Source: an uncultured Alphaproteobacteria bacterium
GTDB lineage: Bacteria > Pseudomonadota > Alphaproteobacteria > HIMB59
Length of the DNA: 64,000 nt
Assembly: GCA_902546975.1 (NCBI GenBank)
Contig: CACCLU010000004.1
Location: 89,134 to 153,133 of the forward strand
Direction: 5' to 3'
Within the stretch, counting starts at the first letter, position 1. Each line of letters begins with the position of its first letter. Shown here in pieces: positions 22,526-42,264 of the stretch. The notes below the pieces were generated by a model. It did not search any database and had not been told where the DNA came from. It saw only the letters and a program-made list of their open reading frames with translations. Position numbers and translations under genes: made by a program.

Positions 22526-22546
22526 TTTATTCCTCCTCCTTTTACA

Positions 22547-23952: not shown

Positions 23953-23971
23953 TGTTTCATATTATGAAACA
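23953..23971. promoter_or_regulatory. Palindromic operator TGTTTCAT-ATT-ATGAAACA (perfect copy)
   Basis: Perfect inverted repeat upstream of the extra mgs-like operon; the same motif occurs at 24799, 32918 and 42246. Confidence 0.75.
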
Positions 23972-24010
23972 AAATTTTTATAAAAATCTATTATTTATCA
24001 ACAATAATCG

Positions 24011-24781
24011 TCAATTGGCAACAATTAGTCGAGAAATTTTAATCGAGGCAGATTGAAGGAGATCGACATAATACATCATAGTTTTTGGGTTTAAAATATT
24101 TTTACTTCCTGATAAAGCGATTCCGGCAAATGATCTTTTATCTTTGTCTAAAATAGCAACTCCTATTCCATAAGAGTTTTCAAAAGCTTCTCCATGATTA
24201 AGTGCATAACCGTTAGTTCTAATTTTGCCTAGTTGTCTTTTTAAATCATTTAAATTTGTAATTGTATTGTTTGTGTGTGGATAAAAATTATAACTACGAT
24301 AAATTGTTGCAATTTCATTTTCAGGTCTGTAAGCAAGCATGACTTTTCCCAAAGCACAGCAATGAGCGTCAAGTCTCATTCTAAAAGTTCTAATAGTTGC
24401 ATCATCATTGTTGTCAGAAATTTTATCAGAATGAACTATTTGAGATCCTTCAAGCATTGCCAAATAGGTAATTAAATTCGTTTTACTAGAGACCTCTTTT
24501 AGAATTTCTTTAGAAGTCTCAGAAATTGACTGAAGATAATCTGAGGTTTCTCCAAATTGAAAAGCTTTATGCCCCATAGTGTATGTATTCGATCCAGTAT
24601 TTTTATGGATATAACCAAGTTGAGATAAAACAGACAATAGTCTAAATGTAGTTGTTCTAGATAAAATTGCTTTTCTGGAAATATTCGATGCCTTCAACGG
24701 GAAAATTGATTTTGATAAAATTTCAAGAATTTTAAAAGATTTTTCCAGAGATTTATTTATATATTTTAAATTTTGTTGCAA
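24011..24781 (-). CDS. IclR family transcriptional regulator
   Basis: N-terminal KSLEKSFKILE..HTH (LSRTTTFRLLSVL..LGY), AHCCALGKVMLA, IRTNGYA; TTG start with GGAGG SD. Confidence 0.92.
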   Translation of the reverse strand: MQQNLKYINKSLEKSFKILEILSKSIFPLKASNISRKAILSRTTTFRLLSVLSQLGYIHKNTGSNTYTMGHKAFQFGETSDYLQSISETSKEILKEVSSKTNLITYLAMLEGSQIVHSDKISDNNDDATIRTFRMRLDAHCCALGKVMLAYRPENEIATIYRSYNFYPHTNNTITNLNDLKRQLGKIRTNGYALNHGEAFENSYGIGVAILDKDKRSFAGIALSGSKNILNPKTMMYYVDLLQSASIKISRLIVAN

Positions 24782-24798
24782 AACTGTCCTCCAACCAA

Positions 24799-24817
24799 TG
24801 TTCCACAGTATGAAACA
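24799..24817. promoter_or_regulatory. Operator copy TGTTCCACAGTATGAAACA upstream of iclR (putative autoregulation)
   Basis: Matches the 19-bp palindrome; 18 nt upstream of the iclR start. Confidence 0.65.
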
Positions 24818-24851
24818 TTATAGTATAGTTTAAGTTATTAGCAACTAGTGG

Positions 24852-26171
24852 TTAAATCTTACCAGGCACCCAACCGGTTCCCGCTAAAGGAACCCTTGCC
24901 ATTGCAGCAGCTTCAACTGTTAATGCACATAGGTCCTCAGGTTCAAGATTATGTAAATCGTTTTTACCACATGCCCTCGCTATAGTTTGGGCTTCAAGAG
25001 TCATAACCTTGAGATAATTAGATAATCTTTTTCCACCTTTTACTGGATCTAATCTTTTCATTAATTTTGGATCTTGTGTATTTATACCTGATGGGTCTTT
25101 ACCTTCATGCCAATCATCGAAAGCACCAGCTGTTGTTCCAAGTTTTTTGTAATCGCTCTCCCACTTTGGATCATTATCACCCAGTGCAATTAATGCTGAT
25201 GAACCAATGGAAACAGCATCAGCACCCAATGCCATAGCTTTTGCAACATCCGCACCATTTCTAATTCCACCTGAAATAATTAACTGAACCTTCCTGTGCA
25301 TATCTAAGTCTAATAAAGCATCTACTGCTGGCCTGATACATGCCAATGTTGGCTGACCTACGTTTTCGATAAATACCTCTTGTGTAGCTGCAGTACCTCC
25401 TTGCATGCCATCAAGCACCACCACATCAGCACCGGCTTTTACTGCAAGTGCAGTATCGTAGTAAGGCCTAGATCCTGCAATTTTTACAAATATGGGAACT
25501 TTCCAACCTGTTATTTCCCTGAGTTCTAAAATTTTAATTTCCAAATCATCTGGTCCAGTCCAATCTGGATGTCTACATGCTGATCTCTGATCAATTCCTT
25601 TTGGTAATGTTCTCATCTCGGCAACACGATCACTTATCTTTTGACCGAGTAACATACCTCCACCGCCAGGTTTAGCACCTTGACCTATCACAACTTCAAT
25701 AGCATCTGCTTTTCTTAAATCCTCTGGATTCATTCCATACCTTGAGGGAAGTAATTGGTAAACCAAATGCTTTGATTGTCCTCTCTCCTCAGGGGTCATG
25801 CCTCCATCGCCTGTTGTCGTTGAAGTCCCGGCAATACTAGCTCCTCTTCCAAGCGCTTCTTTCGCTGGTCCTGAGAGAGCTCCAAAGCTCATTCCAGCAA
25901 TTGTTATTGGAATATCTAATTCAAGCGGTTTTTTTGCAAATCTTGTTCCAAGAGTGACGTTAGTACTACACTTTTCTCTATAGCCCTCTAAAGGGTATCT
26001 TGACATTGATGCGCCTAAAAAAAGAAGATCGTCAAAATGAGGTAGTCTTTTTTTTGAACCACCGCCTCTAATGTCATAAATACCTGTTTCTGCAGCTCTT
26101 CGAATTTCAGAGTTTGTATAGTCATCAAATGTCCAAGATTTTCTTGGTGTAGTTTTAAATTTTTCTGCCAT
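24852..26171 (-). CDS. mgsC: N-methylglutamate synthase FMN subunit
   Basis: AGMSFGALS, TGDGG, GQGAKPGGGGMLLG, SACRHPDWTGPDDL; Cys-less FDDWHEGKDP. Confidence 0.85.
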   Translation of the reverse strand: MAEKFKTTPRKSWTFDDYTNSEIRRAAETGIYDIRGGGSKKRLPHFDDLLFLGASMSRYPLEGYREKCSTNVTLGTRFAKKPLELDIPITIAGMSFGALSGPAKEALGRGASIAGTSTTTGDGGMTPEERGQSKHLVYQLLPSRYGMNPEDLRKADAIEVVIGQGAKPGGGGMLLGQKISDRVAEMRTLPKGIDQRSACRHPDWTGPDDLEIKILELREITGWKVPIFVKIAGSRPYYDTALAVKAGADVVVLDGMQGGTAATQEVFIENVGQPTLACIRPAVDALLDLDMHRKVQLIISGGIRNGADVAKAMALGADAVSIGSSALIALGDNDPKWESDYKKLGTTAGAFDDWHEGKDPSGINTQDPKLMKRLDPVKGGKRLSNYLKVMTLEAQTIARACGKNDLHNLEPEDLCALTVEAAAMARVPLAGTGWVPGKI

Positions 26172-26854
26172 TAGTACTCCGATACATTATCTATATTAAA
26201 ATTATAAAGTTTTCTTGCTGAACCATACATTTTGAAGTTTTTAATCTCACTTTCATTTATACTTGCTTTTTTTAAAAGAGATCTCAAAATATTTTGATCT
26301 TTTTTATTCATTTTTTTCTCTTCGCAGTCAGCACCGAGTGATTTCACCTTACCCTTAATAAAAATATTTGCTTCATAGATACTGTCTCCCAGAGCGTCTC
26401 CAGCATCTCCACATATAACTAAATTTCCAGATTGAGCCATAAATGCAGACATATGGCCTACCGATCCTTTAACTATAATATCTATTCCTTTCATTGAAAT
26501 CCCACAACGTGAACTAGTATCACCATCAATGATCAAAGTTCCACCATGTGCTGTAGCACCGGCTGATTGGGATGCATTGCCCTTAACATGAACAGTTCCA
26601 GACATCATATTTTCTGCAACACCTGTGCCCACATTTCCATTTACAATGATATTTGCATTCATGTTCATACCAGCACAATAGTATCCTGTGTGACCATCAA
26701 TAGTGACTTCAATCTCGTCTTTTAGTCCAGCACAAATAGCGTGATTTCCATCTGGATTTGAAATTTTAAAAATCTTTTTGTTTGATTTTCTATCTATACT
26801 CTGAAGAGTTTCATTAACTTTTCTCAATGACTCTTTTTTTAAATTTAAATTCAT
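26171..26854 (-). CDS. mgsB: N-methylglutamate synthase GXGXG subunit
   Basis: GHTGYYCAGM, GNASQSAGATAHGG, RCGISMKG. Confidence 0.85.
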   Translation of the reverse strand: MNLNLKKESLRKVNETLQSIDRKSNKKIFKISNPDGNHAICAGLKDEIEVTIDGHTGYYCAGMNMNANIIVNGNVGTGVAENMMSGTVHVKGNASQSAGATAHGGTLIIDGDTSSRCGISMKGIDIIVKGSVGHMSAFMAQSGNLVICGDAGDALGDSIYEANIFIKGKVKSLGADCEEKKMNKKDQNILRSLLKKASINESEIKNFKMYGSARKLYNFNIDNVSEY

Positions 26855-27735
26855 TATTTGCCCCAGCTGTATACTTTTCCGGGCTCTGGTTCAAAAATTT
26901 TTGCTGAATTTACATTTGGTAAGTGTGCCATTGCTTGAAACTCTGAGGCAATAGCAACATAATCCTTTGTTTCTGCAACAACTGCGGGTTTACAAGCTAT
27001 CTCATCTCTAACAATTGCCATGCCATTTTTGGTTCCAGAAATAAATGTGTAAAAACCATCGAGGTCCTTCAGTCCATCCAAAAGTGTTTCTTTGAGTGAT
27101 TTTTTATCAGATAATCCGTTTGAAATATAACCTGCAGCGACTTCCGTATCATTCAAGGACTTTATTTCAATCCCTTTTTTCTGAAGCGATCTTCTTAAAT
27201 TGTTGTGATTTGACAAAGATCCGTTATGTACAAGACATTCATCCTCGCCTGTGGAATATGGATGAGAGCCATCTGTCGTGATTGCACTTTCTGTTGCCAT
27301 CCTTGTATGCCCAATAGCATGTGAGCCAGAAAACTTCTCTAGTGAAAAATTTTTAACAACATCCTTCGGATTTCCTACTTGTTTAAATATTTCTATGCAA
27401 CTACCATACCCAACTAAACTTAATTCATCATGATTTTTTAAAATTTCTATAAATTTCTTTGGCTTCATTGCTGTTTCAATTATTAAATGATCTGAAATAG
27501 ATTTTACTTTGATATCTTTTACTTGCTTAGATAGTTTTTTTGAAATTTCTTTTACTTGATCAGTATTAGAGCAGACCGAATATTTATATTTCTTTTTTTT
27601 CTCAGATGAGTATATCGCAAAACCTGCACTATCAGGACCACGCGTAGCCATACTATTCATCATTCCAGTAAGAAATTTACCTAATTGTGAATTATATTTT
27701 TTATTTTTTAAATATATTCCAACTATACCGCACAT
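26854..27735 (-). CDS. mgsA: N-methylglutamate synthase Ntn-amidotransferase subunit
   Basis: MCGIVG, RGPDSAG, GHTRMATES, HNGSLSNH. Confidence 0.85.
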   Translation of the reverse strand: MCGIVGIYLKNKKYNSQLGKFLTGMMNSMATRGPDSAGFAIYSSEKKKKYKYSVCSNTDQVKEISKKLSKQVKDIKVKSISDHLIIETAMKPKKFIEILKNHDELSLVGYGSCIEIFKQVGNPKDVVKNFSLEKFSGSHAIGHTRMATESAITTDGSHPYSTGEDECLVHNGSLSNHNNLRRSLQKKGIEIKSLNDTEVAAGYISNGLSDKKSLKETLLDGLKDLDGFYTFISGTKNGMAIVRDEIACKPAVVAETKDYVAIASEFQAMAHLPNVNSAKIFEPEPGKVYSWGK

Positions 27736-27740
27736 TAATA

Positions 27741-28337
27741 TTAAATACCCTCATACCCATACTCTAATGACGAGTCAGTAATGCTATGGTAAAAAGAACC
27801 ACCAAAGCTTCTTAATGCATAAAGGTTAAAACAAAACGGTTGGTCGTCTAAATAGTCGATCAGTATGTTAATTCCGTTATATGTCGTGTTCACGCAATTA
27901 TTTGGTTTAAACATATTTTCATTAAAATTTATTGGAGAACCTTTTTTTAAAACATTTTTTGCATTTACGCCTGATATTTGTAATACAGCTCTTGATTGTG
28001 AAATATCTGTAATGGCAAAATCCTCATCTCTAATCGATTTATAAATTTCGTCTTTCAAGTCAATTTTTTTTGAGATAATTAACCAGGTATCAGGACCGGT
28101 CCACAATACTCTTGTTTCTTGGTTGTGAGAAACTTTTAGACTTTCTGTCGGTAAATTAAGTTGATTTATGGTAACTTTTTCAATCTCAATTGAGCTTTTT
28201 TTAAATTTAGCAATTTGGATAATACTTAGGTCTTTTATTTCTGAAATTTTTAATAGGTTTTCTTTATTCTCATAGTCGCCAAACAAGCCGAGCTTATGAT
28301 CAAAATGAAGTGGTGATAGGTTTTGTGCTTGTTCCAT
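27741..28337 (-). CDS. soxG: Sarcosine oxidase gamma / N-methylglutamate dehydrogenase small subunit
   Basis: LWTGPDTWL, DISQSRAVLQISG, RSF; operon position. Confidence 0.85.
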   Translation of the reverse strand: MEQAQNLSPLHFDHKLGLFGDYENKENLLKISEIKDLSIIQIAKFKKSSIEIEKVTINQLNLPTESLKVSHNQETRVLWTGPDTWLIISKKIDLKDEIYKSIRDEDFAITDISQSRAVLQISGVNAKNVLKKGSPINFNENMFKPNNCVNTTYNGINILIDYLDDQPFCFNLYALRSFGGSFYHSITDSSLEYGYEGI

Positions 28338-31336
28338 TATGATCTTACCCTTGAGCCTTCGGGATCAACATAGTGTGAGGATACTACCTCAACAGGAATT
28401 GAAATATCTTTCAAAGGAGAGACAGCATATAGATTTTTACCAATTTTATTTTTACCATCTTTTATAATAGCTATGGAAAAAGGATTATTATATTCAACAC
28501 TCCAACAAGAAGATGAAACATGTCCAAGTTTAGGTATTGGGGCAACAGCACTATTATCTTCTATAATATGTGAACCCTCTGGGATCTTTGTTTTTTTGTC
28601 TAGTGGAACAAGTCCAACAATAGTTTGTCTATCCGACTCAGTGAATGCATCTTTAGATAAAGATCTTTTACCTATGAAATCTTTTTTCTGACTCACCATA
28701 CTATTCAGTCCAACATCAAAAGGAATAGTACGTCCGTCTAATTCTGCTCCTGCGACATGACCCATTTCTATTCTTAAGGTTGATAGAGCTTCTGTTCCGT
28801 ATGGTTGAATATCAAATGACTGTCCTACTTCCATGATCTTCTTCCACATATAAAGACCATAGTTTGACTCGACATTTACCTCATAAGCTAGTTCGCCAGA
28901 AAAAGAAATTCTATAAATTCTAGCTTTGATACCGTCTATTGAAGAGTCCACTAGCCCCATGAATGGTAAGCCCTCATTAGACATATCTACATCAGGAAAT
29001 AACTTAGATAAAAGATCTCTAGACTTTGGACCTGCCACTGCTATACCAGACCACTGTTCAGTAGTTGATAAGACATTTACATCTAAATCTGGCCATACAA
29101 CTTGTAAATAATACTCTAAGTGCGATAAAACATTTGCAGCTTGGGCAGTAGTGGTAGTCATATGAAAATGATTTTCAGATAATCGAGATGTTGTTCCATC
29201 ATCAAAAACCATGCCATCTTCCCTTAGCATTACTCCATATCTAGCTTTTCCAACGGGCAGTTTCAGCCATGCATTTGTATAAACTCTGTTTAAGAATTCT
29301 GGTGCATCCGGACCTTTAATATCAATCTTACCAAGTGTCGTAACATCACAAATTCCAACGTTTTTTCTTACATTTGCAGCTTCCCTATTAACAGCAGTGT
29401 TCATATCCTCAGAACCCCTTGGGTAGTATCTGGGTCTTTGCCATAAACCTGCTGCTACAAAAACAGCATTATTTTCCTCATGCCATGTATGAATGGGAGA
29501 TTTTCTTGTCGGTAAATAGTGATTACCAACTTCTCTACCTACGATAGCTCCAATTGTTACAGGAGTGTATGGTGGTCTAAATGTTGTATGACCAACTTCT
29601 GGAACAATCTTTTTTTCTATTTTAGATACATATTGCAAACCATTTAAATTACTTGTCTTACCTTGATCGCCGGCCATCCCAAGAGTTGTATATCTTTTGA
29701 CGTGCTCAATTGATCTGAAGCCTTCTCTAATTGCAAGCTCTACATCAGAAACTGCAACGTCATTTTGAAAGTCGATAAAGCGTTTTGGTTTTTTTCCAGA
29801 TGGTAAAGGCATACACCAGAGCTTTTCATGTTTTTCATAGCTAGGTTCATTTGAGTTGGGACTATTTGTAGGATTATTTTGATCTGTGAATTTGTTTGAT
29901 AAATCAAAGCCCACTTGAAAACCTTCAGCTAGAGATTGATTTAAGGTAAAAGAACCATTAGCAGCTCCAATTGCAGTTTCTTTCTGTCTTTTTTTATCTG
30001 GTACGAATGCATCAATATCATCGTTAAACTTTAATTTATTTCCAGCTTGGGAAGATAAATGAACCGTTGGTGTCCAGCCTCCGGACATACAAATGCAATC
30101 ACACTCTACTGTTTCTTCTAAAATAAAAGACTCTTTTGAAGAGTCAAGCTTACCAATGATAGCAGAGTTTATCTTCAAATGTCCTTTAGTGTCTGCGATC
30201 CCTGAATTAAATTTTATAGAAATACCCTTTTGCTGAACTTCCTTGACTAATTCACCGTTTGAGCTGTCTCGAGTGTCTACAATGATTGGTTCAATATCAT
30301 TTTTAATAAACTCAAGGGCAGTTGAATATGCTGTATCATTATTGGTAAATATAATTGGTTTCTTACCAACTAATGTTTCATAAACCTTCATATATTCTTT
30401 TGCTGCTGAGGCTAATACAATTCCTGGCCTATCATTGTTTCCAAAAGATATTGGTCTTTCAATAGAACCAGTTGAAACAATTACTTCTCCAGCTCTAATA
30501 TAATGTAGTCTTTGTCTTGGAGTGTATTTTGAGGGATTTTCAATATGATCGCTAACTCTTTCAATCATTACGGTCATATTGTGATCATAGTATCCAAAGA
30601 CTTGTGACCTTTTTTTTAATATTACATTTGGCATACTTTTTAGCTGGGAAATGGTATCACTAGCCCACTCTTTTCCTGACATGTTACCAATCGTAACTTC
30701 GTCAGTTAGAAGAGAGCCACCAAAATTAGGCTTGTCTTCTGCTAATATTACTCTTGCCCCGTTTTTTGCAGCAGCCAGAGCACTTGCGAGGCCTGATGGA
30801 CCAGAGCCAACAACGAGTACATCGCAGTGTTCATAATTATGCTCGTACCTATCTGGGTCAGGTAACAGTGGTGCTTTACCCATACCAGCAGCTTTTCTTA
30901 TAAATGGTTCATAGATTTTCATCCAAAAACTTTTTGGCCACATAAATGTTTTGTAATAGAAACCTGCAGGAAAAAAACGATTTAAGACATTATTGATTTC
31001 TCCAATATCAAATTGAACTGAGGGCCAACAATTTTGACTTTTAGCTTTTAATCCCTCAACTAACTCAACTTCGGTCGCAATGATATTAGGTTCAGATTTA
31101 TTACCATCATGCAATTGTACCATTGCATTTGGTTCTTCAACACCAACTCCCAAAAAACCGCGAGGGCGATGATACTTAAAACTTCTTCCAACTAAATGAA
31201 CACCATTTGCAATTAAAGCAGATGCAAGGGTGTCTCCTTCATAGCCATGATAAATAGTTCCGTTAAAAGTAAAGTTAATTTTTTTATCCTTATTAATAAG
31301 TCCGGTTGAGTTGGTTGTTCTAAAACTGTTAGACAT
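28337..31336 (-). CDS. soxA: Sarcosine oxidase alpha / N-methylglutamate dehydrogenase large subunit
   Basis: GRSFKYHRPRG, VGSGPSG, KRYTTLGM..DQGK, GcvT-like C-terminal half. Confidence 0.93.
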   Translation of the reverse strand: MSNSFRTTNSTGLINKDKKINFTFNGTIYHGYEGDTLASALIANGVHLVGRSFKYHRPRGFLGVGVEEPNAMVQLHDGNKSEPNIIATEVELVEGLKAKSQNCWPSVQFDIGEINNVLNRFFPAGFYYKTFMWPKSFWMKIYEPFIRKAAGMGKAPLLPDPDRYEHNYEHCDVLVVGSGPSGLASALAAAKNGARVILAEDKPNFGGSLLTDEVTIGNMSGKEWASDTISQLKSMPNVILKKRSQVFGYYDHNMTVMIERVSDHIENPSKYTPRQRLHYIRAGEVIVSTGSIERPISFGNNDRPGIVLASAAKEYMKVYETLVGKKPIIFTNNDTAYSTALEFIKNDIEPIIVDTRDSSNGELVKEVQQKGISIKFNSGIADTKGHLKINSAIIGKLDSSKESFILEETVECDCICMSGGWTPTVHLSSQAGNKLKFNDDIDAFVPDKKRQKETAIGAANGSFTLNQSLAEGFQVGFDLSNKFTDQNNPTNSPNSNEPSYEKHEKLWCMPLPSGKKPKRFIDFQNDVAVSDVELAIREGFRSIEHVKRYTTLGMAGDQGKTSNLNGLQYVSKIEKKIVPEVGHTTFRPPYTPVTIGAIVGREVGNHYLPTRKSPIHTWHEENNAVFVAAGLWQRPRYYPRGSEDMNTAVNREAANVRKNVGICDVTTLGKIDIKGPDAPEFLNRVYTNAWLKLPVGKARYGVMLREDGMVFDDGTTSRLSENHFHMTTTTAQAANVLSHLEYYLQVVWPDLDVNVLSTTEQWSGIAVAGPKSRDLLSKLFPDVDMSNEGLPFMGLVDSSIDGIKARIYRISFSGELAYEVNVESNYGLYMWKKIMEVGQSFDIQPYGTEALSTLRIEMGHVAGAELDGRTIPFDVGLNSMVSQKKDFIGKRSLSKDAFTESDRQTIVGLVPLDKKTKIPEGSHIIEDNSAVAPIPKLGHVSSSCWSVEYNNPFSIAIIKDGKNKIGKNLYAVSPLKDISIPVEVVSSHYVDPEGSRVRS

Positions 31337-31601
31337 TAAAGTCCTCGTTCATTTTACACGTATCAAAAATTTCATGTGTAGCGGTGTCTCTTGAGACTTT
31401 AAACCATTGTCTACATCCAGAAACATGATGCCATAGTTCTGAATGTTTTCCTCTTGGGTTGTCTCTGTAGTAAACAAAATTATCCCAATCCTCGGTTGAA
31501 ATTTCTTCTCCTAGTTGAGGTCTTTTTATAGTGGCGTCTCCGCCATAAGAAAATTCATTTTGTGAGCGCTTGCCACAGTATGGGCATTTTATTTCTAACA
31601 T
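31329..31601 (-). CDS. soxD: Sarcosine oxidase delta subunit
   Basis: CPYCG and WHHVSGCRQWF zinc ligands. Confidence 0.93.
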   Translation of the reverse strand: MLEIKCPYCGKRSQNEFSYGGDATIKRPQLGEEISTEDWDNFVYYRDNPRGKHSELWHHVSGCRQWFKVSRDTATHEIFDTCKMNEDFNV

Positions 31602-31604
31602 CTA

Positions 31605-32861
31605 TTAACCGATCCAAGGTTTAGGGCCTACCCCCTTTTCATCAATAATTTTTCCAGTATGGAATCTTTCAAGGTTAAAGTCTGAGTTGAGTTCATGTAC
31701 TTGATCTTGTGCTATTGTATGTGCAAAAACAAAACCTGAGCTAGGAGTAGCTTTAAAGCCTCCGTAGCACCAACCGCAATTAAGATATACACCCTCAATA
31801 TGAGTTTTATCGATTATTGGAGAACCATCCATGGACATATCCATAATACCTCCCCAAGTTCGAAGCATTTTGAGTCTACTAAAGTTTGGGAAGACAGCCA
31901 ATCCACCTGTTAAAACATGCTGTATCATTGGCATATTTCCTCTTTGAGCATAGCTGTTGTAACCATCTAAATCACCACCCATAACCATTTCACCTTTGTC
32001 AGATTGGCTGCAATAAAAGTGACCTGCTCCGAAAGTAACTACGTTATGAAGTAAAGGTTTAACTGGTTCTGAGACACAAGCTTGCAGAACATGTGCTTCA
32101 ATTGGAAGTCTCATATTTAACATGTCTGCTAAAAGTGTAGTGCTTCCAGCAACACACAATCCAACTTTTTTAGTTTTAATGTTTCCTCTTGATGTTTGAA
32201 CGCCTTCTATTTTTCCGTTATTAACATCAAAACCTGTCACTTCACAATTTTGAATTATATCGACACCCATGGAGTCTGCCTGTCTAGCATATCCCCAAGC
32301 AACTGCATCATGTCTTGCAGTTCCTCCACGTGGTTGCATTAAACCACCATGAATGGGAAAACGACATGTTTCTGAAAAATCTGCAAATGGGATCATCTTT
32401 TTTAAATCATCCCTTCCAAGAAGAATTGCATCAATACCATTTAATCTCATAGAGTTACCTCTTCTAGCGTAAGCATTCATTTGTGCATCAGAGTGAGCTA
32501 GGTTTATAATTCCTCTCGGTGAGTACATAACGTTGTAATTTAATTCTTGGCTAAGTGTTTCCCAAAGCTTCATACCAAACTCATAAAAATGAGCGTTTGA
32601 ATCAAACATATAGTTAGATCTCAAGATGGTAGTGTTTCTTCCAACATTACCTCCTCCAATCCAACCCTTTTCAAGTATGGCAACGTTTGTGATGCCATGT
32701 TCTTTTGCAAGATAATAAGCTGTTGCAAGACCATGACCACCGCCGCCTACAATTATGACATCGTATTCTTTTTTAGGCTCGGGGTCTTTCCAAGCTACCT
32801 CCCAATTTTCATGGTTGGTGAAAGCATTTTTTACTAAACTAAAAACTGAGTACTTTTGCAT
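31605..32861 (-). CDS. soxB: Sarcosine oxidase beta / N-methylglutamate dehydrogenase flavoprotein
   Basis: GGGGHGLATAYYLA, GGNVGRNTT, GTARHDAVAWGYAR, GWCYGGFK. Confidence 0.93.
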   Translation of the reverse strand: MQKYSVFSLVKNAFTNHENWEVAWKDPEPKKEYDVIIVGGGGHGLATAYYLAKEHGITNVAILEKGWIGGGNVGRNTTILRSNYMFDSNAHFYEFGMKLWETLSQELNYNVMYSPRGIINLAHSDAQMNAYARRGNSMRLNGIDAILLGRDDLKKMIPFADFSETCRFPIHGGLMQPRGGTARHDAVAWGYARQADSMGVDIIQNCEVTGFDVNNGKIEGVQTSRGNIKTKKVGLCVAGSTTLLADMLNMRLPIEAHVLQACVSEPVKPLLHNVVTFGAGHFYCSQSDKGEMVMGGDLDGYNSYAQRGNMPMIQHVLTGGLAVFPNFSRLKMLRTWGGIMDMSMDGSPIIDKTHIEGVYLNCGWCYGGFKATPSSGFVFAHTIAQDQVHELNSDFNLERFHTGKIIDEKGVGPKPWIG

Positions 32862-32917
32862 GATTCAATTAAACCTCTTCGAAAATATATATTCCTAATA
32901 TAATGCTACAATAAACC

Positions 32918-34369: not shown

Positions 34370-34376
34370 ATAATAT

Positions 34377-34550
34377 ATGTCCAATCATACTCTTAATTTT
34401 ATTGGATGGGTTTTATTTATTATATCTGCTGTAGGCTTTATAATATCAAGTATTGGTAGTTTCTGGGCTATGTTTGGAAGTCTTTTTTTCTTTGTAGCTT
34501 GTTTTGTTTTTCTAATACCATTCTTTAGAAAAGAAAAAAATAAAGATTAA
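34377..34550 (+). CDS. Small two-TM protein (57 aa) directly after tmm, not in the ORF track
   Basis: MSNHTLNFIGWVLFIISAVGFIISSIGSFWAMFGSLFFFVACFVFLIPFFRKEKNKD; starts 7 nt after the tmm stop. Confidence 0.7.
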   Translation: MSNHTLNFIGWVLFIISAVGFIISSIGSFWAMFGSLFFFVACFVFLIPFFRKEKNKD

Positions 34551-35716
34551 GGAATATTTTTGTCAATCCCCTTTGGGATGAGTTTTTCTTTATCGTAAAA
34601 TGGTAAATCAATTATTTCGCAGTCAGCTAAATTATCATTAACAGAATCAACTTTAATTTGAAATTCTTTCCACTCACCAGGGTAGTCAAATCGTACATAA
34701 CCCACATACTTTTCTAAAGTAGGAGACCAAGTTGATGCTGAAAGATATCCAATTTTTTGTTCATTTGATGATAAATAAACTTTTGCTCTTGGAATAATTT
34801 CTTTATCGGTAGTTATACCAAATAATCTCTTTCCAAATTTTGTTGATAAAAATTCTAAAGCTTTTTTTCCAATAAAATTTTCTTTTTCCAAATCAACTAG
34901 AGAGCCTAATCCAATTTCATAAGGATTCATAGAAGAGTCAAAATCTGTGTTGTTATCTAGGATGCCTGCTTCAATTCTTCTTATATCCATTGATTCTAGA
35001 CCATCAAATGTCATACCCATCGGATATCCGATTTCACAAATAGTATCCCAAATTTTTTTATAATTAGTCTTATTTCCTAGAGTATAAATTTCGAAGCCTA
35101 ATTCAGAAGTCCATCCTGTTCTAGAGACATATACATTTTGATCAGCTATTTTTGAATAGCCTGAATGATAATATTTAAAATCATTGTTTATTTCTCCATT
35201 TGTCAGCTTTGAAATTATATCTTTAGAAATTGGACCTTGTATTTGTATCACTCGAGAATTAGGGTCAGTTATAGTAACTTCATAGTTTTTTTGATGAGCT
35301 TTTAACCAAGTTTCAAGGGGTCCATCAGGTTGGACGTACCAAAATTTATTTTGCTCTAATCTAAAAAGGACACCATCTATAAATATTCCGCCATTTTCAT
35401 AACAGGCAATTGCATATTTACCCCTGCCTACTTTCATATCTTTAATTTTGCGACAAAATATTTTATCAAGAAATTCCTCTGACTGTGGTCCCTCTATTTG
35501 AATAGGTTTTTCAGGTACATCATACATGACAGCTTTTCTTCTCAAATTCCAGTAACTATCTTTAATTTTATTTCCAACAGATATTGGAAAATAGCGATCG
35601 GCATATACACCATAAGAATTATCTTCTTTATGATAAAATTCAAAAAAAGGTCCTTTATCAAACCTGTTATCACTAATTGGTAAAGTTGAAGATTTATCTA
35701 AAAAAATTGAACTCAT
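34547..35716 (-). CDS. GcvT-family aminomethyltransferase / THF-dependent demethylase-like protein
   Basis: MYDVPE, IDGVLFRL, VSRTGWTSELGFEIY, RRIEAGILD; directly downstream of tdm. Confidence 0.85.
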   Translation of the reverse strand: MSSIFLDKSSTLPISDNRFDKGPFFEFYHKEDNSYGVYADRYFPISVGNKIKDSYWNLRRKAVMYDVPEKPIQIEGPQSEEFLDKIFCRKIKDMKVGRGKYAIACYENGGIFIDGVLFRLEQNKFWYVQPDGPLETWLKAHQKNYEVTITDPNSRVIQIQGPISKDIISKLTNGEINNDFKYYHSGYSKIADQNVYVSRTGWTSELGFEIYTLGNKTNYKKIWDTICEIGYPMGMTFDGLESMDIRRIEAGILDNNTDFDSSMNPYEIGLGSLVDLEKENFIGKKALEFLSTKFGKRLFGITTDKEIIPRAKVYLSSNEQKIGYLSASTWSPTLEKYVGYVRFDYPGEWKEFQIKVDSVNDNLADCEIIDLPFYDKEKLIPKGIDKNIP

Positions 35717-35732
35717 TTAAAAGATAAATAAA

Positions 35733-38084
35733 TTAGGATTTAACTCTTGATTTAGTTGGATCATAAAATGGGAAAGGTACAACCTTAGCCTTTATTCTTT
35801 TTTGTTGACCATCTAACTTACCTATTTCAACTTCAGTATTAAGCTCGCTGTATTTGACATTGATTTTACAAAGAGCAATATTTTTATTTAGAACAGGGGA
35901 TTTCATACCACTTGTTATAATGCCAACTTGTTCCCTTCCATTATTTGAAGGATGAACACAGTCACCATGCCCGGTAGTTTCATTTCCCTCAATCTCAAGT
36001 CCAACTAGTTTTCTTTGAGGGTTTGTCTTTCTTTCAAGTAAAGCTTCTTTACCAATAAAGTTATCTTCTTTTGATTTGAGAGGAACAGTAAAACCAATTC
36101 CCGCCTCAAACGGATCAGTTTGATCGTCGAATTCATAATTTGCAAAAACTAAACCAGCTTCAATTCTGACTAAATCCAAAGCGTCCAATCCCATAGGCAC
36201 AATTCCAAACTCCTCTCCGGCTTTCATTACAGCATCCCAAACTTCAGCAGCTTTACTCGGATGACAGAATATTTCATAACCTAGTTCACCTGTATATCCA
36301 GTTCTAGAAACCATTAAAGGAATTCCATCTAAAGTATTTAACCTAGCTATAGAAAACCTAAACCACTCTAAATCAGTCAATGATGTTTGATGAGGAGGGG
36401 TCCAGATTATCTTTTTTAATATTTCTCTACTCTTTGGCCCTTGGACGGAAACATTATGTAAATTATCAGTAGAAGATTTAATCCATACCTTTAAGTTATG
36501 TTCCTTTGCTTTTTCTCTTAACCATTCACCGCAATACTCATCTCCACAAATCCACCTAAAATTATCATCCGTCATTTTGAATAGTGTACCGTCATCAAGC
36601 ATACCTCCATGCTCGTAGCACATCGCAGTGTAAACAACTTGGCCAACAGATAGTTTTCTGATGTTTCTGGTGCAAGTCATTTGTAAAAGTTCTTCAGCGT
36701 CTGGGCCTCGTACTTCAAACTTTCTTAATGCTGATAGATCCATAATGATAGCCCGCTCTCTGCAAGCTTCATATTCTTGGTGCGCCCCGTAATTATTATA
36801 ATTAGAAGCTAACCAGAAGCCTTTGTACTCAACAATATTTTCAGTAAGTTTTGATACTCTTGGGTGAAAACCAGTTTCTTTAGTTAATTTTGGATCAGAG
36901 TCTGCTTTCATTCTAAATGCCATTCCTTTACTAAAAGGTCTATTCGGTCTATAGACTCTAACAAAAATGTCAGTAGGATTCCATCCATTAGCTGCATCTA
37001 CATCGTCTGGACAGGCAGAGGAGACACAAACTAAATTTTTCAGGGCTTTAAACATCACATAGTCTCCTGGTCTAGACCATGGTTCATCAAAAATTAAAGC
37101 ATTATTTGCATCAATGGCTGTGTTGTAAAATAAATTTATAGCATTCCAACCTAGTCTTTTTCTCACAGTAAACTTATCTAATACATAATTGAAATTATCT
37201 GAGCAATTTGGATGACCAAAATAGCCAATATCATCATAAAATTTCGAAGTACATGCAGTACCAAACGTATCATGTCTTCCGACAGTGTCTCTGTAGACTT
37301 CAACCATGGGCATTTGATTTTCATCGTAATATTTAGAATGGAGACCTGGCATTGGAAAAGCACTACCCATTAAATATCTACTATTAGTTGTATCTATTGA
37401 GAGCTCTTGGCCTTTTTGAAGGCTCTCTGAGTCGAATGCCATAAAGTCAGAACATTGTCTTCCATAAACATCAATTATCTGAATAAAATCTCCCTCTTTG
37501 ACCTCATAGGCCATTGCGGTATATCTTTTAACAAAAATTTCTTCAACAGGATCCATTAAAGGGTCTGGTAATAAAAATTCTCCCTCTTCACGTTTTTTAT
37601 TTCTTTGAACAATTACTCGTAGTTGGGATGCAGGAATATTTTCATGTGTAATTTCACTTTCGCCTGGTGCAGAAATTATACAAACAATGGAGTCGTTTGT
37701 TTTAAACTCCTCAATTGAACCTGAAAGTGAATTTTGAGAAAATACTAAAATCGATTGATTAATAGACTCTACCTCATATCCAAGTTTTTTTAATTTAGTA
37801 CGTGCTATTTGAGCTGACTCCTCCTCGCTCGTAAGGATTTTTTTTGTTAATTGTCCGTTGTGCTCGTTATTAAGACCTAAAGGTGATAGATTACACTCTC
37901 GCTTTGAATTAAAGCATACAATCTCGGCCTGTTGATGGCCTTCTAAATTAATTATTTTAATTTTGTCATCTGGTTCTAATTTTAATGTGAGAGAACCTCC
38001 ACCAATTACCAAATAATTTTCTAAGTCGTCACCAAGAGCTGGTAATCCAGGTTCATAAGGTTGAGTAACTCTTGGGATGATCAT
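35733..38084 (-). CDS. tdm: TMAO demethylase (DUF1989 + GcvT fusion)
   Basis: N-terminal DUF1989 repeats with GRQCSDF, HDTFGTAC, SSACPDD; C-terminal GcvT (DLSALRKFEV, RTGYTGELGYEI). Confidence 0.9.
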   Translation of the reverse strand: MIIPRVTQPYEPGLPALGDDLENYLVIGGGSLTLKLEPDDKIKIINLEGHQQAEIVCFNSKRECNLSPLGLNNEHNGQLTKKILTSEEESAQIARTKLKKLGYEVESINQSILVFSQNSLSGSIEEFKTNDSIVCIISAPGESEITHENIPASQLRVIVQRNKKREEGEFLLPDPLMDPVEEIFVKRYTAMAYEVKEGDFIQIIDVYGRQCSDFMAFDSESLQKGQELSIDTTNSRYLMGSAFPMPGLHSKYYDENQMPMVEVYRDTVGRHDTFGTACTSKFYDDIGYFGHPNCSDNFNYVLDKFTVRKRLGWNAINLFYNTAIDANNALIFDEPWSRPGDYVMFKALKNLVCVSSACPDDVDAANGWNPTDIFVRVYRPNRPFSKGMAFRMKADSDPKLTKETGFHPRVSKLTENIVEYKGFWLASNYNNYGAHQEYEACRERAIIMDLSALRKFEVRGPDAEELLQMTCTRNIRKLSVGQVVYTAMCYEHGGMLDDGTLFKMTDDNFRWICGDEYCGEWLREKAKEHNLKVWIKSSTDNLHNVSVQGPKSREILKKIIWTPPHQTSLTDLEWFRFSIARLNTLDGIPLMVSRTGYTGELGYEIFCHPSKAAEVWDAVMKAGEEFGIVPMGLDALDLVRIEAGLVFANYEFDDQTDPFEAGIGFTVPLKSKEDNFIGKEALLERKTNPQRKLVGLEIEGNETTGHGDCVHPSNNGREQVGIITSGMKSPVLNKNIALCKINVKYSELNTEVEIGKLDGQQKRIKAKVVPFPFYDPTKSRVKS

Positions 38085-38087
38085 TCT

Positions 38088-40160
38088 CTATGCTAATCCA
38101 AGAGCTTTTTTTCTTTCCTCGGCCCATTTTCTCACAATTACATCTACTGAAATAGCCATTAAAGAAACGAATAAACCTAGTGTTATAGCAACACCAGGAC
38201 CGTCTTGAGCTCTTGATAATGCTCCAAAAATAAGTTGGCCTAAATCTTCAGTTCCAATTAACGCTCCTAAAATTACCATTTGAAGAGTGAAAACAACTGT
38301 TTGATTAACGCCAAGCATAATTGTAGGGAAAGCTAATGGAATTTCAATATTTGTCCATCTTTGTATTCTCGAGACACCGGACATGGTGCCTGCTTCATGT
38401 AAGGAGAGTGGGACACTATTTAGACCCCAGACAGTATATCGAGTAGCAGGAACAGTAGCATAAACAATAGCAGCTATTAACACTGAGGTATCAGTAATAT
38501 TGAACAAGAAGATAACAGGTATTAAATAAACAAAGGATGGAAATGTTTCAAAAAAATCACACACGGAGAGAATAATTTTTGACCCCCTCTCAGTTTGTGC
38601 AAATATTGATCCAACTATTATTCCATTGAGAGATGCCATAATTACAGCAAATGTTGCCATGTACATTGTAATTAAAGCTCTGTCCCAATATTTTGACATA
38701 GCAATAAATAACATCATGCCCCCAACTAATAAGCTTGTTCTAATTCCACCAATGATATAAGCGACACCCATAGTAAGAGTCAACGTGGCAACTACTGGCA
38801 TACCTAGATAAGCTTTTTTCATAGGACCTAGAACTTCAGTTAGAAGAAACTTATTGAAAGAATTGAGAGAATAGAAAAAAGTTTCCCAAACCCAATCAAC
38901 AGCAGCATCAATATAGTGAGCAAAAGTAAAACCTTTTTCAATAGGTATGACATATAAGTAATTAATTTTATCGAAGTAACCATTTGCTATAAAAGCAATG
39001 ATTGAAAAAATTAAAATTGAGGTTCCAAAGATGATTAAGAGTTTATATCTTTGAAAAAAAGATAAATTTTCAAAATAATCAACTTGTTTATTCGCCCATG
39101 CTTTTGTAAATCGATCAAGGATAACAGCAATTAAGACGATACAAAAACCTGCTTCAGCAGCTTTGCCAATTTTTAAACTATTTAAGGCAATTTTTAAATT
39201 TAGACCAAGTCCTTTTGCACCAACGAAAGACGCAATTACAACCATTGCTAGGCATTGCATAATAACTGTATTGACACCGTTTAAAATATCTCGTCTAGCT
39301 GTTGGTATTAATACTTTAAATAAAAGCTGAGTTTTTGTACAACCGCTCATAAGTCCCGCTTCTACTACCTCAGGTGAAATTCGTTTTAATCCTAAAATGG
39401 TATTTCTTATCATTGGTGGGGTAGCAATTACTATAGTAGCTATCGAACCTGCATGATCGCCTAAACCAAATAAAGCTATAATAGGGACTAGATATGCAAA
39501 TTGAGGCATAGTTTGCATTACATTTAGTACTGGTTGCAAAGCTGTCTCAACTTTTCTATCTAGGTATCCCCATATTCCAAAGGATAGACCTAATACAAAA
39601 CAAATTGGTGTTGTAATTAGAACAAAAGAGAGTGTTTGTATAGATGGTACCCAATTTCCAAAGATTGATACATATAAAGATCCTATCCCTCCAAGTAAAG
39701 CCAATCTAATACCACCAAGTTGGAACCCAAGCAAAAAAGCACCGACTGTAGCTGCTGTCCATGGAAGTGCTGGCCATGTCATCCAATCATTATCTTTCAG
39801 CCAAGCATCACTAACAAAAACATCAATTATTTTGTCACCACCCAATAAAAGTTCTCTTACAAAAGTAATTAAAAATAATAAACCTTTAGATATAGATTTT
39901 GTGAATTCACGAAATGCTGCTTTTTCTTCATACATTTCAAATATGGGGTCCCATACTTTGAGAGGAAACCATTCATATAAAGCTGCATATATAATCTCAT
40001 TTAACTTAATTGGTATGAAAGCTAATATAGAGGGAAGTCTCCAAAAATAGTTACCCTCATTATGTGGCACTAAATTGTATAAAAGCAAAAATACAATTAA
40101 TAAAATACCAAACTGAGCTAGTTTTGAAGATCTAATGATATTTAAATAATTCTTATCCAC
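38088..40160 (-). CDS. tmoV: TMAO ABC transporter permease (two fused ProW-like domains)
   Basis: Two repeats (LNVMQTMPQFAYLVP, CDFFETFPSFVYLIP), each followed by an EAA-like loop. Confidence 0.85.
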   Translation of the reverse strand: MDKNYLNIIRSSKLAQFGILLIVFLLLYNLVPHNEGNYFWRLPSILAFIPIKLNEIIYAALYEWFPLKVWDPIFEMYEEKAAFREFTKSISKGLLFLITFVRELLLGGDKIIDVFVSDAWLKDNDWMTWPALPWTAATVGAFLLGFQLGGIRLALLGGIGSLYVSIFGNWVPSIQTLSFVLITTPICFVLGLSFGIWGYLDRKVETALQPVLNVMQTMPQFAYLVPIIALFGLGDHAGSIATIVIATPPMIRNTILGLKRISPEVVEAGLMSGCTKTQLLFKVLIPTARRDILNGVNTVIMQCLAMVVIASFVGAKGLGLNLKIALNSLKIGKAAEAGFCIVLIAVILDRFTKAWANKQVDYFENLSFFQRYKLLIIFGTSILIFSIIAFIANGYFDKINYLYVIPIEKGFTFAHYIDAAVDWVWETFFYSLNSFNKFLLTEVLGPMKKAYLGMPVVATLTLTMGVAYIIGGIRTSLLVGGMMLFIAMSKYWDRALITMYMATFAVIMASLNGIIVGSIFAQTERGSKIILSVCDFFETFPSFVYLIPVIFLFNITDTSVLIAAIVYATVPATRYTVWGLNSVPLSLHEAGTMSGVSRIQRWTNIEIPLAFPTIMLGVNQTVVFTLQMVILGALIGTEDLGQLIFGALSRAQDGPGVAITLGLFVSLMAISVDVIVRKWAEERKKALGLA

Positions 40161-41166
40161 CGAATAAAACTTTTATAACTTTAGAAGGGTTTATAGAGCC
40201 AACTACTGAATTTTTATCATCAACAACTTTAATAATTTCTTTACTATTTAAAATTTTTTCTGCTACGGTTTCTATAATATCATCTTTTTTAACAGCTATT
40301 TCTCCGGAGGCATGTGGATCAGAGGCATCCATGATTGACTCTATCTTCAATACTTTTTCACGAGGGACATCCTCAGTAAATTTCCTAACATAGTCAGTAG
40401 CAGGATTTAAAACTATATTATCTGGTTTGTCTAATTGTTCTATTATTCCATCTTTCATAATAGCTATTCTATCAGCAAGCCTCAATGCTTCGTCAAAGTC
40501 ATGAGTGACAAACATAATTGTTTTATTCAAAACAGACTGGAGTCTCAAAAACTCGTCTTGCATTTCTTTTCTAATTAGAGGATCAAGTGCAGAGAAAGGC
40601 TCATCTAAAAACCAAATATCAGGTTCAACTGCTAATGACCGCGCAATTCCAACTCTTTGTTGCTGTCCACCAGAGAGTTCTCTTGGAAAGTAATTTTCTC
40701 TACCCTTTAGGCCTACAAGCTCAACCATTTCAAGTGCTTTATGAATGCTATTTTCAGTAGTGACTCCTTTTACTTGAAGCGGAAAAGCAATATTTTCTAA
40801 AACTGTTTTATGTGGAAGAAGAGCGAAATTTTGAAATACCATTCCCATCTTTTCTCTTCTTAGTTCGATTAATTGCTTATTATTCATTAAGCAAATATCC
40901 TCACCATCAATTAAAATTTTACCAGAAGTTGCGTCTGTTAATCTAGATATACACCTTAGTAATGTTGATTTTCCTGATCCAGAGAGACCCATAACTACAA
41001 GCATTTCTCCCTGATTTACATCAAAAGAAGCATTGTTAACGCCAACTATGCACCCTGCTTCTTGAAATTTTTTGGCGTCTACATTCCCTCCACTTTCAGA
41101 TAAAAGTGTCTGAGCGTTATTACCAAAAATTTTATAGACAGATGAACAGCTAATAGTTGGTGACAT
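40153..41166 (-). CDS. tmoW: TMAO/betaine ABC transporter ATPase
   Basis: GLSGSGKST, LSGGQQQRVG, DEPFSALDPLIR (ProV-like). Confidence 0.88.
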   Translation of the reverse strand: MSPTISCSSVYKIFGNNAQTLLSESGGNVDAKKFQEAGCIVGVNNASFDVNQGEMLVVMGLSGSGKSTLLRCISRLTDATSGKILIDGEDICLMNNKQLIELRREKMGMVFQNFALLPHKTVLENIAFPLQVKGVTTENSIHKALEMVELVGLKGRENYFPRELSGGQQQRVGIARSLAVEPDIWFLDEPFSALDPLIRKEMQDEFLRLQSVLNKTIMFVTHDFDEALRLADRIAIMKDGIIEQLDKPDNIVLNPATDYVRKFTEDVPREKVLKIESIMDASDPHASGEIAVKKDDIIETVAEKILNSKEIIKVVDDKNSVVGSINPSKVIKVLFGG

Positions 41167-41192
41167 AAATTAATCTTTCCTAAAATAAAATT

Positions 41193-41221
41193 AATTCCCC
41201 CCTCAAAAAGAGGGAGGAATT
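41193..41221 (-). terminator. Hairpin between tmoX and tmoW
   Basis: Minus strand AAUUCCUCCCUC-UUUUU-GAGGGGGGAAUU, fully paired using one U:G wobble, followed by a U-rich tract. Confidence 0.65.
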
Positions 41222-41234
41222 CAAATTAGAAATA

Positions 41235-42176
41235 TTACTTCATAAATAGATCTATTTGATCTCTATTATTTGCAATATATGCAGTTGCAGCTTCAGCATG
41301 AGTCATGCCTTCGTTGTCAACGTAGTTTGCCATTTCACCAATGTTAGGTGCTGTAAATTCCATTTTTGTATAGAACTTATATGCAGATGTATGAGTGATT
41401 GGGAACTTAATGTGAGCAGCTTTTTTAAGCCAACCTTTTGGAGAACCACAACCAGTAGTCTCTAAAGAACCACCTTGTTCTAGTCTACATCCCTCGAAGT
41501 ATGGAGGAAATTCAATGAAAGTAAAACCAGCTGCATCTGTAAAGTTTGGAGACCAGTTAAAGATAATTGTGCCTCTTCCCTCTTTTTTAGCTGCTTCTAA
41601 TTCAGCCCATAATGCATCTGCAGTACCTGCAAATTTTACCATCCATAAATCATCTATACCAAGACCTTTAAGTCTGTTAGGCATAACTTCTGTGTGCCAC
41701 TCATAAGGACCTTCTAACCATCTACCTTTACCTTCAGAGTCTGGTGTTGCAAAGTTTGCTGCACACTCTGGAGATTTAAGTGCTTCCCAGCTTGGAAGAC
41801 CAGGACATAATCCATCTTCGATTACCCAGTTAGGAACACCCATTTCTTCAAAAGTAATAAGGTCGTGACTTCCAGCATCAATTAATCCACCTTTATCCAT
41901 AGCTTCATAAAAAGGCAGAGCCATTGTTGACTCCCAAGTTTCGTGAGCAACGTGAAGTTCACCTACTCTGACAGCTTCATATCTTGTTGCTGACTCAGCA
42001 GGGACTAATTCAACATCATAACCAAGCTCTTCAAAAGCTTGTGCCATAACGTTAGCCATAACGATTTGGCTTGACCAGTTTAAAACTGGAATTCTAATCG
42101 GGTCTGCTGCTTTTGCTACAGTTGTAAAACCAGCAAACAGGACTAGAGCGTAAAATAATGAAATAAATTTTTTCAT
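41235..42176 (-). CDS. tmoX: TMAO ABC transporter substrate-binding protein
   Basis: Signal peptide; NWSSQ, HETWE, EEMGVPNWV, FNWSPNF; adjacent to tdm. Confidence 0.85.
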   Translation of the reverse strand: MKKFISLFYALVLFAGFTTVAKAADPIRIPVLNWSSQIVMANVMAQAFEELGYDVELVPAESATRYEAVRVGELHVAHETWESTMALPFYEAMDKGGLIDAGSHDLITFEEMGVPNWVIEDGLCPGLPSWEALKSPECAANFATPDSEGKGRWLEGPYEWHTEVMPNRLKGLGIDDLWMVKFAGTADALWAELEAAKKEGRGTIIFNWSPNFTDAAGFTFIEFPPYFEGCRLEQGGSLETTGCGSPKGWLKKAAHIKFPITHTSAYKFYTKMEFTAPNIGEMANYVDNEGMTHAEAATAYIANNRDQIDLFMK

Positions 42177-42245
42177 TTACTCCTCCTATATCTATTATAA
42201 TAGTAGAAGTAATATAGGGCATAAGACAACAAGGTTGAAGCCTAA

Positions 42246-42264
42246 AAATCCATAATATGAAACA
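42246..42264. promoter_or_regulatory. Operator copy AAATCCATAATATGAAACA upstream of tmoX
   Basis: 16/19 identical to the 32918 copy. Confidence 0.6.

Follow-up and report, generated by a model that had tools for sequence, protein, structure and literature searches.

A conserved palindromic operator most likely places methylated-amine, dimethylformamidase-like and FArhodopsin genes of a marine alphaproteobacterium under its sole IclR-type regulator

How is an island of genes for methylated-amine catabolism controlled in a streamlined ocean bacterium? Such bacteria (SAR11, HIMB59) have very few transcription factors, and methylated-amine genes are important both for the nitrogen cycle of the sea and for climate-active amines. 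We address this question for an uncultured alphaproteobacterium of the HIMB59 lineage, starting from a stretch of 64,000 nucleotides, hereafter the window (contig CACCLU010000004.1 of assembly GCA_902546975.1; C4:89134-153133), of a 1.29-Mb genome (G000) with a GC content of 30%. The window contains the genes for the use of trimethylamine (TMA) and trimethylamine N-oxide (TMAO), an additional group of genes that we call the extra module, and a gene for a regulator of the IclR family. A first-pass annotation had described four palindromes, at 23953, 24799, 32918 and 42246 (the last matching at 16 of 19 positions), and had placed all of them between genes. We found the four at these positions, and the map of open reading frames (ORFs) agrees that each is intergenic. 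Here we argue that the TMA/TMAO genes, a candidate dimethylamine (DMA) module, an operon for an N,N-dimethylformamidase (DMFase)-like enzyme and the operon of the flotillin-associated rhodopsin (FArhodopsin) are most likely controlled by the sole IclR-type regulator of this genome through this palindrome.

The motif is a 19-bp palindrome, TGTTYCAY-N3-RTGRAACA (or TGTTYCA-N5-TGRAACA). A scan of the window with the symmetric pattern TGTTYCAYNNNRTGRAACA, in which at most one mismatch was allowed, returned only three sites, where 100 shuffles of the window led us to expect 0.03. All three are perfect and, being palindromes, have no strand: site A (23953 to 23971, TGTTTCATATTATGAAACA) separates the stop codon of iclR from the gene that opens the extra module, site B (24799 to 24817, TGTTCCACAGTATGAAACA) lies 17 nt 5' of the iclR start codon and is predicted to be autoregulatory, and site C (32918 to 32936, TGTTCCATAATATGAAACA) lies in the divergent soxB/tmm promoter region. 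They are the only perfect copies in the genome, and all fall within 9 kb around iclR. A symmetrised position weight matrix (PWM), built from orthologous sites and run over the whole genome, gave five top matches with scores of 22.9 to 28.6, every one of them intergenic; sites A, C and B score 28.6, 28.5 and 25.5, respectively, and the two others, sites E and F, are introduced below. At a score of 20 or more, about 0.1 matches were found per Markov-shuffled genome (20 such genomes served as the null), against the five observed. The following seven matches (14.1 to 16.0) are all located inside long ORFs, and we rejected them as further sites, regarding them as chance matches. Hence, stray intergenic matches, which would have spoken against a regulon, were not found in the genome. 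The fourth palindrome, site D (42246 to 42264, no strand, AAATCCATAATATGAAACA), located upstream of tmoXWV-tdm, is degenerate, with three mismatches and a PWM score of 13.0.

The positions of these sites are conserved. The comparison covered 71 genomes at species level, drawn from the family and genus of this bacterium, and orthologous spacers from about 20 divergent loci were aligned (alignments A1 to A6 for sites C, A, B, D, F and E, in this order; A7 for the IclR protein). The pattern gives between 1 and 10 matches per genome across the 71 genomes, and a reversed control pattern gives none in most of them. In about 20 genomes of the genus, whose IclR proteins are as little as 73% identical, the palindrome stands out as the only conserved block in spacers that have otherwise diverged. 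Thus, the GTTTCA..ATGrAACA core of site A is invariant across 21 genomes (A2), site B is kept in 19 of 20 genomes although the mean identity of its spacer is only 42% (A3), and in the 173 bp between soxB and tmm nothing but site C is strongly conserved among 17 genomes, the columns without variation being concentrated on the palindrome (A1). The conservation in orthologous promoters asked for by the first-pass annotation is therefore strong, also when site D is included (A4), and extends for site A to a sister clade. Separately from site C, a second conserved block, AAAAATGGATTGGAAA, is present at 32975 to 32990 in the tmm leader or promoter in about 10 genomes (A1); the spacer of a predicted promoter, ATGACA-17-TAAAAT, overlaps with this block, which could be the site of another regulator or a leader element.

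The two remaining high-scoring matches are located on another contig, in the region C2:253486-262521 (L051:9486-18524). Site E (C2:259683, TGTTTCATTATTTGGAACA) lies 40 nt upstream of a pair of genes encoding proteins of 142 and 784 amino acids, the DMFase-like operon, and site F (C2:253486, TATTTCAAAATATGAAACA) lies 57 nt upstream of the gene for a 232-aa rhodopsin, the first gene of the FArhodopsin operon. Of 13 orthologous promoters, 12 keep site E (A6); site F is kept in 12 promoters and, with one additional base, in a further one (A5). This conservation spans orthologues down to 87-88% protein identity. These sites change the regulon that was first envisaged. The proposal that IclR regulates its own gene and co-controls TMAO uptake, tmm, the sox-mgs genes and the extra module is supported by the consensus fit, the single iclR gene and the conservation of the sites, but the regulon is not confined to the island, given the two strong sites elsewhere, and its tmoX member is weak in this genome. 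The other part of the proposal, that gmaS and amt are regulated separately because their spacer has no good copy, is consistent with our data: no site is present in the amt/gmaS spacer (15301 to 15533), where the best PWM score is -11.4.

Which protein recognises the palindrome? Several lines of evidence point to the IclR protein encoded at 24011 to 24781 on the minus strand. It is 256 aa long, close to the approximately 250 aa expected of the family, and contains both the DNA-binding domain (PF09339, HTH_IclR, 2.1e-9, residues 11-60) and the effector-binding domain (PF01614, IclR_C, 1.5e-29, residues 85-251). A search of G000 with PF01614 identified it as the single IclR-family gene. It has been shown by comparative genomics that one class of IclR operators, "group 1", has the consensus GKTYCRYW3-4RYGRAMC (Suvorova & Gelfand 2021, PMC8222616), and sites A, B and C, which read GTTYCAY-N3-RTGRAAC, fit it; the 3-nt centre is all A/T at sites A and C and of the CAG type at site B. 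Most IclR-family sites are located 20-80 nt upstream of start codons, with numbers falling off to 300 nt (PMC8222616). The operator centres described here are 27-108 nt from the start codons, most of them in or near this range, and, as expected of group-1 operators, they are upstream of their targets, include sites at the regulator's own gene and its neighbours, and are conserved among orthologues. The consensus fit, the single IclR-family gene and the sites that flank iclR in two clades all favour the adjacent IclR as the binder, and we consider it likely that the palindrome is its operator. It should be noted that one relative, G010, has a second, divergent IclR-family gene (PF01614, 1.4e-14; G010:C4:19265-19780); a more distant homologue (P0059, 35% identical), located in a TRAP-transporter context, was left out of the comparison.

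The sister clade gives an indication of what is oldest in this regulon. The IclR homologues are 72-98% identical to the protein studied here or fall into a separate group at 45-50%, which comes from single-amplified and metagenome-assembled genomes of HIMB59 type or labelled Pelagibacterales. Four residues of the recognition helix, R42, T44, F46 and R47, are the same in both clades (A7), which also favours IclR as the binder. In 18 of 20 sister-clade loci, as well as in a metagenome contig (L052), a perfect TGTTTCA-N5-TGAAACA is located 2-12 nt after the iclR stop codon and precedes genes for a 448-aa DAO-type protein and a 495-aa protein resembling glutamine synthetase (GS-like), with tdm and tmm next door. 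The order iclR-site-DAO-GS-like is thus common to both clades, and from this retention of site and gene order we conclude that site A and the extra module form the ancestral core of the regulon. No convincing site was observed upstream of iclR in the two sister-clade loci read in detail (L052 and L128). As a separate observation, L052 contains, at 677-1998 between tmm and tdm and beside iclR-site-DAO, genes for a TrxB-like flavoprotein (336 aa) and a 2Fe-2S ferredoxin (103 aa).

The same spacers provide information on the sign of the regulation. Past the operator, at a distance of 27-29 nt, there is a -10-like hexamer in each of the six directions in which targets lie (A towards the DAO-type gene, C towards soxB, C towards tmm, D towards tmoX, E and F). 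These hexamers were called manually on the basis of spacing. The predicted -10 of the extra module (CAAAAT, 23920 to 23925, minus strand, 27 nt from site A) is weaker than the others, which are TATATT for soxB (32884 to 32889, minus strand, 28 nt from site C), TATATT for tmoX (42211 to 42216, minus strand, 29 nt from site D), GATTAT for tmm, TAAAAT for site E and TAATAT for site F. Several are conserved in alignments A1 and A4 to A6; for example, columns 27, 31, 32 and 34 of A1, which cover the soxB hexamer, are invariant in the 17 genomes, and TAATATA near the tmoX -10 is kept in five of the seven genomes aligned (A4). Based on the hexamer density in the same spacers, the chance of such a hexamer is roughly 0.15-0.19 per site, and hence a coincidence in all six directions is unlikely, even with an offset chosen post hoc. 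No -35-like hexamer accompanies the -10s of the target promoters, and a scan with the promoter consensus found no -35/-10 pair overlapping site C (on the soxB side), D, E or F. The constant offset and the missing -35 place the operator centre near -50 and give these promoters the look of activator-dependent ones. Site B has another geometry: it abuts the -10 of a promoter-like TTGCTA-16-TATAAT element (24844-24817, 10 of 12 positions matching), covers the transcription start and is close to the start codon, which is the classical position for autorepression. We therefore lean, though weakly, towards the view that IclR activates the catabolic promoters at sites A, C, D, E and F and represses its own gene at site B.

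Several observations weigh against this reading as a whole. (i) The -10 assignments are consensus matches in DNA of 30% GC. (ii) With the alternative promoter at site A, TTGATA-16-AAAAAT (24001-23974), which stops 2 nt short of the operator, the transcription start would be covered by the operator, as expected of a repressor. (iii) In the sister clade the offset to a conserved TAAAAT is 23 nt and not 28 nt. (iv) IclR scores below every NCBIfam equivalog cut-off, so that neither effector nor sign can be chosen by analogy with a characterised orthologue. It belongs to a subfamily without a characterised member, its scores being 112.2 bits for TIGR02431 (PcaR/PcaU/PobR; cut-off 284.75), 105.2 bits for NF011671 (KdgR; cut-off 275) and 104.9 bits for NF045644 (BhcR; cut-off 350), and it is a member of none of the three. 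(v) The score of site D in this genome is at chance level, there being 119 three-mismatch matches genome-wide. (vi) Twelve assemblies without iclR and tmm still have sites E and F.

As for site D, its outer left arm is lost and its right arm is intact; it is the highest-scoring intergenic PWM match below the top five and has 18 contiguous bases in common with site C. Relatives have better copies at this place: seven genomes have kept the right arm, the G051 copy has only one mismatch (A4), the tmoX spacer of G008 contains a two-armed copy (L035:18970-18988, AGTTTCACAAGTTGAAACA), and G068 has a one-mismatch match at the distance from site C that corresponds to site D. The conserved position and these two-armed copies suggest that site D is here the decayed copy of a real operator. 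An alanine racemase ORF (42257-43345) opens with an ATG that is embedded in the right arm of this site. Translation probably begins at another ATG further on in this spacer, in which case the operator need not extend into the gene.

The strongest competing explanation accepts both the operator and its binder, and holds that IclR is a classical repressor at every site, acting by occlusion or as a roadblock and released by a methylated-amine effector, with no activation at all. Many members of the IclR family repress (PMC8222616), site B abuts a good -10, and the -35 of the alternative promoter that ends just before site A is part of an invariant block, TTATCAACAAT. However, no promoter-like pair overlaps sites C, D, E or F, and the constant distance to a conserved -10-like hexamer that has no -35 resembles an activator-dependent arrangement. 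Repression throughout is thus a serious contender, which we nevertheless regard as having a less than even chance of being correct.

It is also conceivable that another transcription factor binds the palindromes, the proximity of iclR being coincidental or reflecting co-regulation of iclR by that factor. The assemblies listed under (vi), in which no IclR-family gene was detected while E and F are kept, are what speaks for this explanation. IclR orthologues were found in 54 of the 71 genomes, and tmm and iclR are present or absent together, contig-edge cases aside. At least two of the assemblies lacking iclR, G060 and G035, break inside the island: they contain island fragments, from tmoX onward, on contigs of 7.0 and 13.9 kb that end within it, and G060 also retains a copy of site D. 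Hence, the absences of iclR are at least partly assembly gaps. Moreover, the DMFases of these assemblies are 96-100% identical to those of iclR-bearing relatives, and such genomes are too close for orphan sites to have decayed, so that these assemblies speak neither for nor against IclR. Against another binder stand the identity of the motif with the IclR group-1 consensus (PMC8222616), the sites that flank iclR in two clades whose IclR proteins are only 45-50% identical, and the fact that Pfam identified no regulator among the annotated ORFs of the 20-kb region around sites E and F, three small ORFs of which had no match. We consider another binder improbable.

Still less probable, and in our opinion very unlikely, is that the palindromes act as RNA hairpins, that is, as attenuators, processing sites or stabilisers. 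Sites A and B fold, at -10.2 kcal/mol (z -4.3) and -9.0 kcal/mol, respectively, and both are located within a long row of co-directional genes. However, site F (-1.5 kcal/mol, z +0.2) and the plus strand of site C (-1.8 kcal/mol) give folds no more stable than those of shuffles, the genes on either side of site C diverge, and what has been kept is the base sequence rather than mere pairing, the arms switching between T and C and between A and G independently. No terminator-like T-run was observed in the promoter regions examined; we rejected a reading of the palindromes as intrinsic terminators or structured RNA, there being no stem with a T-run and not all copies folding better than shuffles. 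Finally, the palindromes might be AT-rich sequences that arose by chance, or copies of a small element that is repeated or mobile, as the low GC content and the bases common to sites C and D could suggest. This is refuted as far as sequence statistics can do so: chance would yield 0.03 sites in the window and, at scores as high as those observed, about 0.1 in the genome, all five top matches are intergenic, and the flanks are unrelated and diverge around sites whose positions are conserved.

The genes that would belong to the regulon within the island are for the most part arranged in a row of 15 genes on the minus strand, running from 32861 to 17451, with site C at its head, site B in the 70 nt that separate iclR from the preceding gene, and site A before the DAO-type gene. 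Downstream of site C lie soxBDAG-mgsABC (24852 to 32861, minus strand; assigned by Pfam), the genes of the N-methylglutamate pathway, separated by gaps of 0-5 nt and followed by iclR. The extra module (17451 to 23893, minus strand; Pfam and NCBIfam), directly downstream of site A, encodes a DAO-type flavoprotein, a GS-like ligase, GATase, GXGXG and GltB-FMN subunits, and a 158-aa ORF. The ORF of the DAO-type gene extends from 22547 to 23950, and its first ATG, at 23950, lacks a ribosome-binding site and is separated from site A by 2 nt. Position 23893 is the most probable start, since a GGAGG Shine-Dalgarno sequence precedes the ATG there and the resulting 448 aa equal the length of the sister-clade orthologues. 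On the plus strand, divergent from soxB and having site C in common with it, is tmm (33035 to 34369; FMO-like, 1.1e-42), which encodes trimethylamine monooxygenase. The operon tmoX-tmoW-tmoV-tdm-GcvT-like (34547 to 42176, minus strand; OpuAC, ABC_tran, BPD_transp_1, DUF1989+GCV_T and GCV_T, with gaps of at most 68 nt) is responsible for TMAO uptake and demethylation to DMA and starts 69 nt from site D. In some relatives site A or B is accompanied by another operator copy at a distance of 37-42 nt (L038:18522/18564, G007:C3:72862/72904 and L032:2273/2310), and such tandem copies fit with binding by an IclR tetramer.

The products of the operon behind site E resemble a two-subunit N,N-dimethylformamidase. 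The large protein matches the Paracoccus enzyme 6LVB_A over residues 3-784 (2.5e-193) and PF20254 (3.7e-91), and it has kept the Tyr, Tyr and Glu found at positions 399, 440 and 521 of the 6LVB_A chain, which we take to be the iron ligands. The match of the 142-aa protein to 6LVB_B is weak (E 0.007), and 8HUY is an acylase with the same fold. In the full-length homology of its large subunit, the conserved putative ligands and the adjacent gene for a small subunit, the operon agrees with a DMFase. A paralogue of the large protein, 58-59% identical, is encoded at G014:C1:87428-89818 and G002:C52:8640-11030, in G014 about 10 kb from tmm on the contig of the TMA island; no operator was seen in the 170 bp aligned upstream of this paralogue.

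The operon behind site F encodes, in this order, the rhodopsin (Bac_rhodopsin, 5.3e-32), a flotillin (Flot/Band_7), a 129-aa ORF, an alpha/beta hydrolase and an SSF symporter. Most relatives have a second proteorhodopsin, 49% identical to FArhodopsin, so that site F precedes a second rhodopsin paralogue located directly before flotillin, as in the FAR cluster. This cluster, including the linkage of FArhodopsin, flotillin and DMFase, has been described for Pelagibacterales and HIMB59, with a rhodopsin of no known function (PMC10308929).

Outside the window, a weak site, AATTTCACAAAGTGAAATA (C4:173214-173232, window coordinate ~84081, PWM 12.2), is located 68 nt upstream of the gene for a class-V aminotransferase of the serine-glyoxylate type. 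G007 has a one-mismatch site at the same place, and in G007, G014 and G016 a further good site, absent here, lies 4.1 kb past the 3' end of the aminotransferase gene, near sucCD/mtkAB-like genes. A tie between these sites and C1 assimilation is possible.

How does this system compare with those already known? IclR regulators with related motifs that have been studied by experiment include PcaU, PobR, PcaR, HmgR and MhpR (PMC8222616). The operators described here are like those of group 1 in the sequence of the half-sites, in their inverted arrangement and in the 3-nt AT-rich centre, and also in that the regulator gene adjoins its targets, has a site in its own promoter, and has operator centres tens of nucleotides upstream of start codons. 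They differ from the known group-1 examples in that no third, direct-repeat box was seen, and the targets, being methylated-amine catabolism, a DMFase-like amidase and FArhodopsin, are unlike those of the group-1 systems in PMC8222616, in which we found no entries for Pelagibacter, HIMB or trimethylamine. The group-2 operators of KdgR, IclR and AllR (TGRAACA-N1-2-TGTTYCA) are built from identical half-site words, but these are everted and differently spaced, whereas here they are inverted. The target genes belong to the known TMA, TMAO and N-methylglutamate sets of marine Alphaproteobacteria (tmm, tdm, tmoXWV, gmaS, mgsABC, mgd/sox) and to the FAR cluster (PMC10308929); the latter paper mentions neither IclR nor promoters, and in the literature searched we found no paper that ties IclR, another regulator or any operator to the tmm, tdm or N-methylglutamate genes of SAR11 or HIMB59, or to the FAR cluster. 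Thus, this kind of system, a group-1 operator with a neighbouring autoregulated IclR, is well known, and the content of the regulon is new, as is an operator common to the FAR cluster and the TMA island.

We propose the following model, which is built on sequence comparison. A dimer of IclR, or a dimer of dimers, would bind the palindrome through the N-terminal helix-turn-helix, and a small molecule sensed by the C-terminal domain would modulate this binding. Among candidate effectors, the most plausible would be DMA, some other methylated amine and a glutamylated intermediate, the economical guess being DMA or a methylated amine related to it. The regulon would comprise six sites, controlling the extra module (A), iclR (B), soxBDAG-mgsABC together with tmm (C), tmoXWV-tdm-gcvT, weakly (D), the DMFase-like operon (E) and the FArhodopsin operon (F), with activation from about -50 at A, C, D, E and F and autorepression at B.

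Two of the predicted target enzymes, Tdm and the DMFase-like enzyme, would both release DMA. To our knowledge, the clades concerned are reported to lack DMA monooxygenase. The regulon would thus join two DMA-producing enzymes with the N-methylglutamate pathway, which handles monomethylamine, and with the module behind iclR; this supports, independently of other evidence, a place for the module downstream of TMA and TMAO, as the first-pass annotation had suggested. The extra module plausibly acts on DMA. A more far-reaching possibility, which we put forward only tentatively and think rather unlikely to hold in full, is that the single IclR is a DMA-centred master switch, which senses DMA or a glutamylated derivative and co-activates the DMA-producing steps, the hitherto missing DMA-consuming route (DAO-type, GS-like and GltB-like proteins) with the N-methylglutamate pathway, and the FArhodopsin-flotillin module. 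If true, the DMA-producing steps would be those of Tmm and Tdm, from TMA and TMAO, and that of the DMFase-like amidase, from DMF-like amides, and the non-pumping FArhodopsin would be part of a microdomain for the uptake and sensing of methylated amines or amides, and not a light-energy device.

In summary, the operator defines a concrete regulon of six promoters and one protein that lends itself to testing. By tying the extra module and a putative DMA-releasing amidase to the TMA and TMAO genes, it gives independent support to the view that the module provides the missing DMA step. In addition, the control of FArhodopsin together with methylated-amine catabolism, if borne out, would suggest conditions and partners with which the function of this rhodopsin may be tested.

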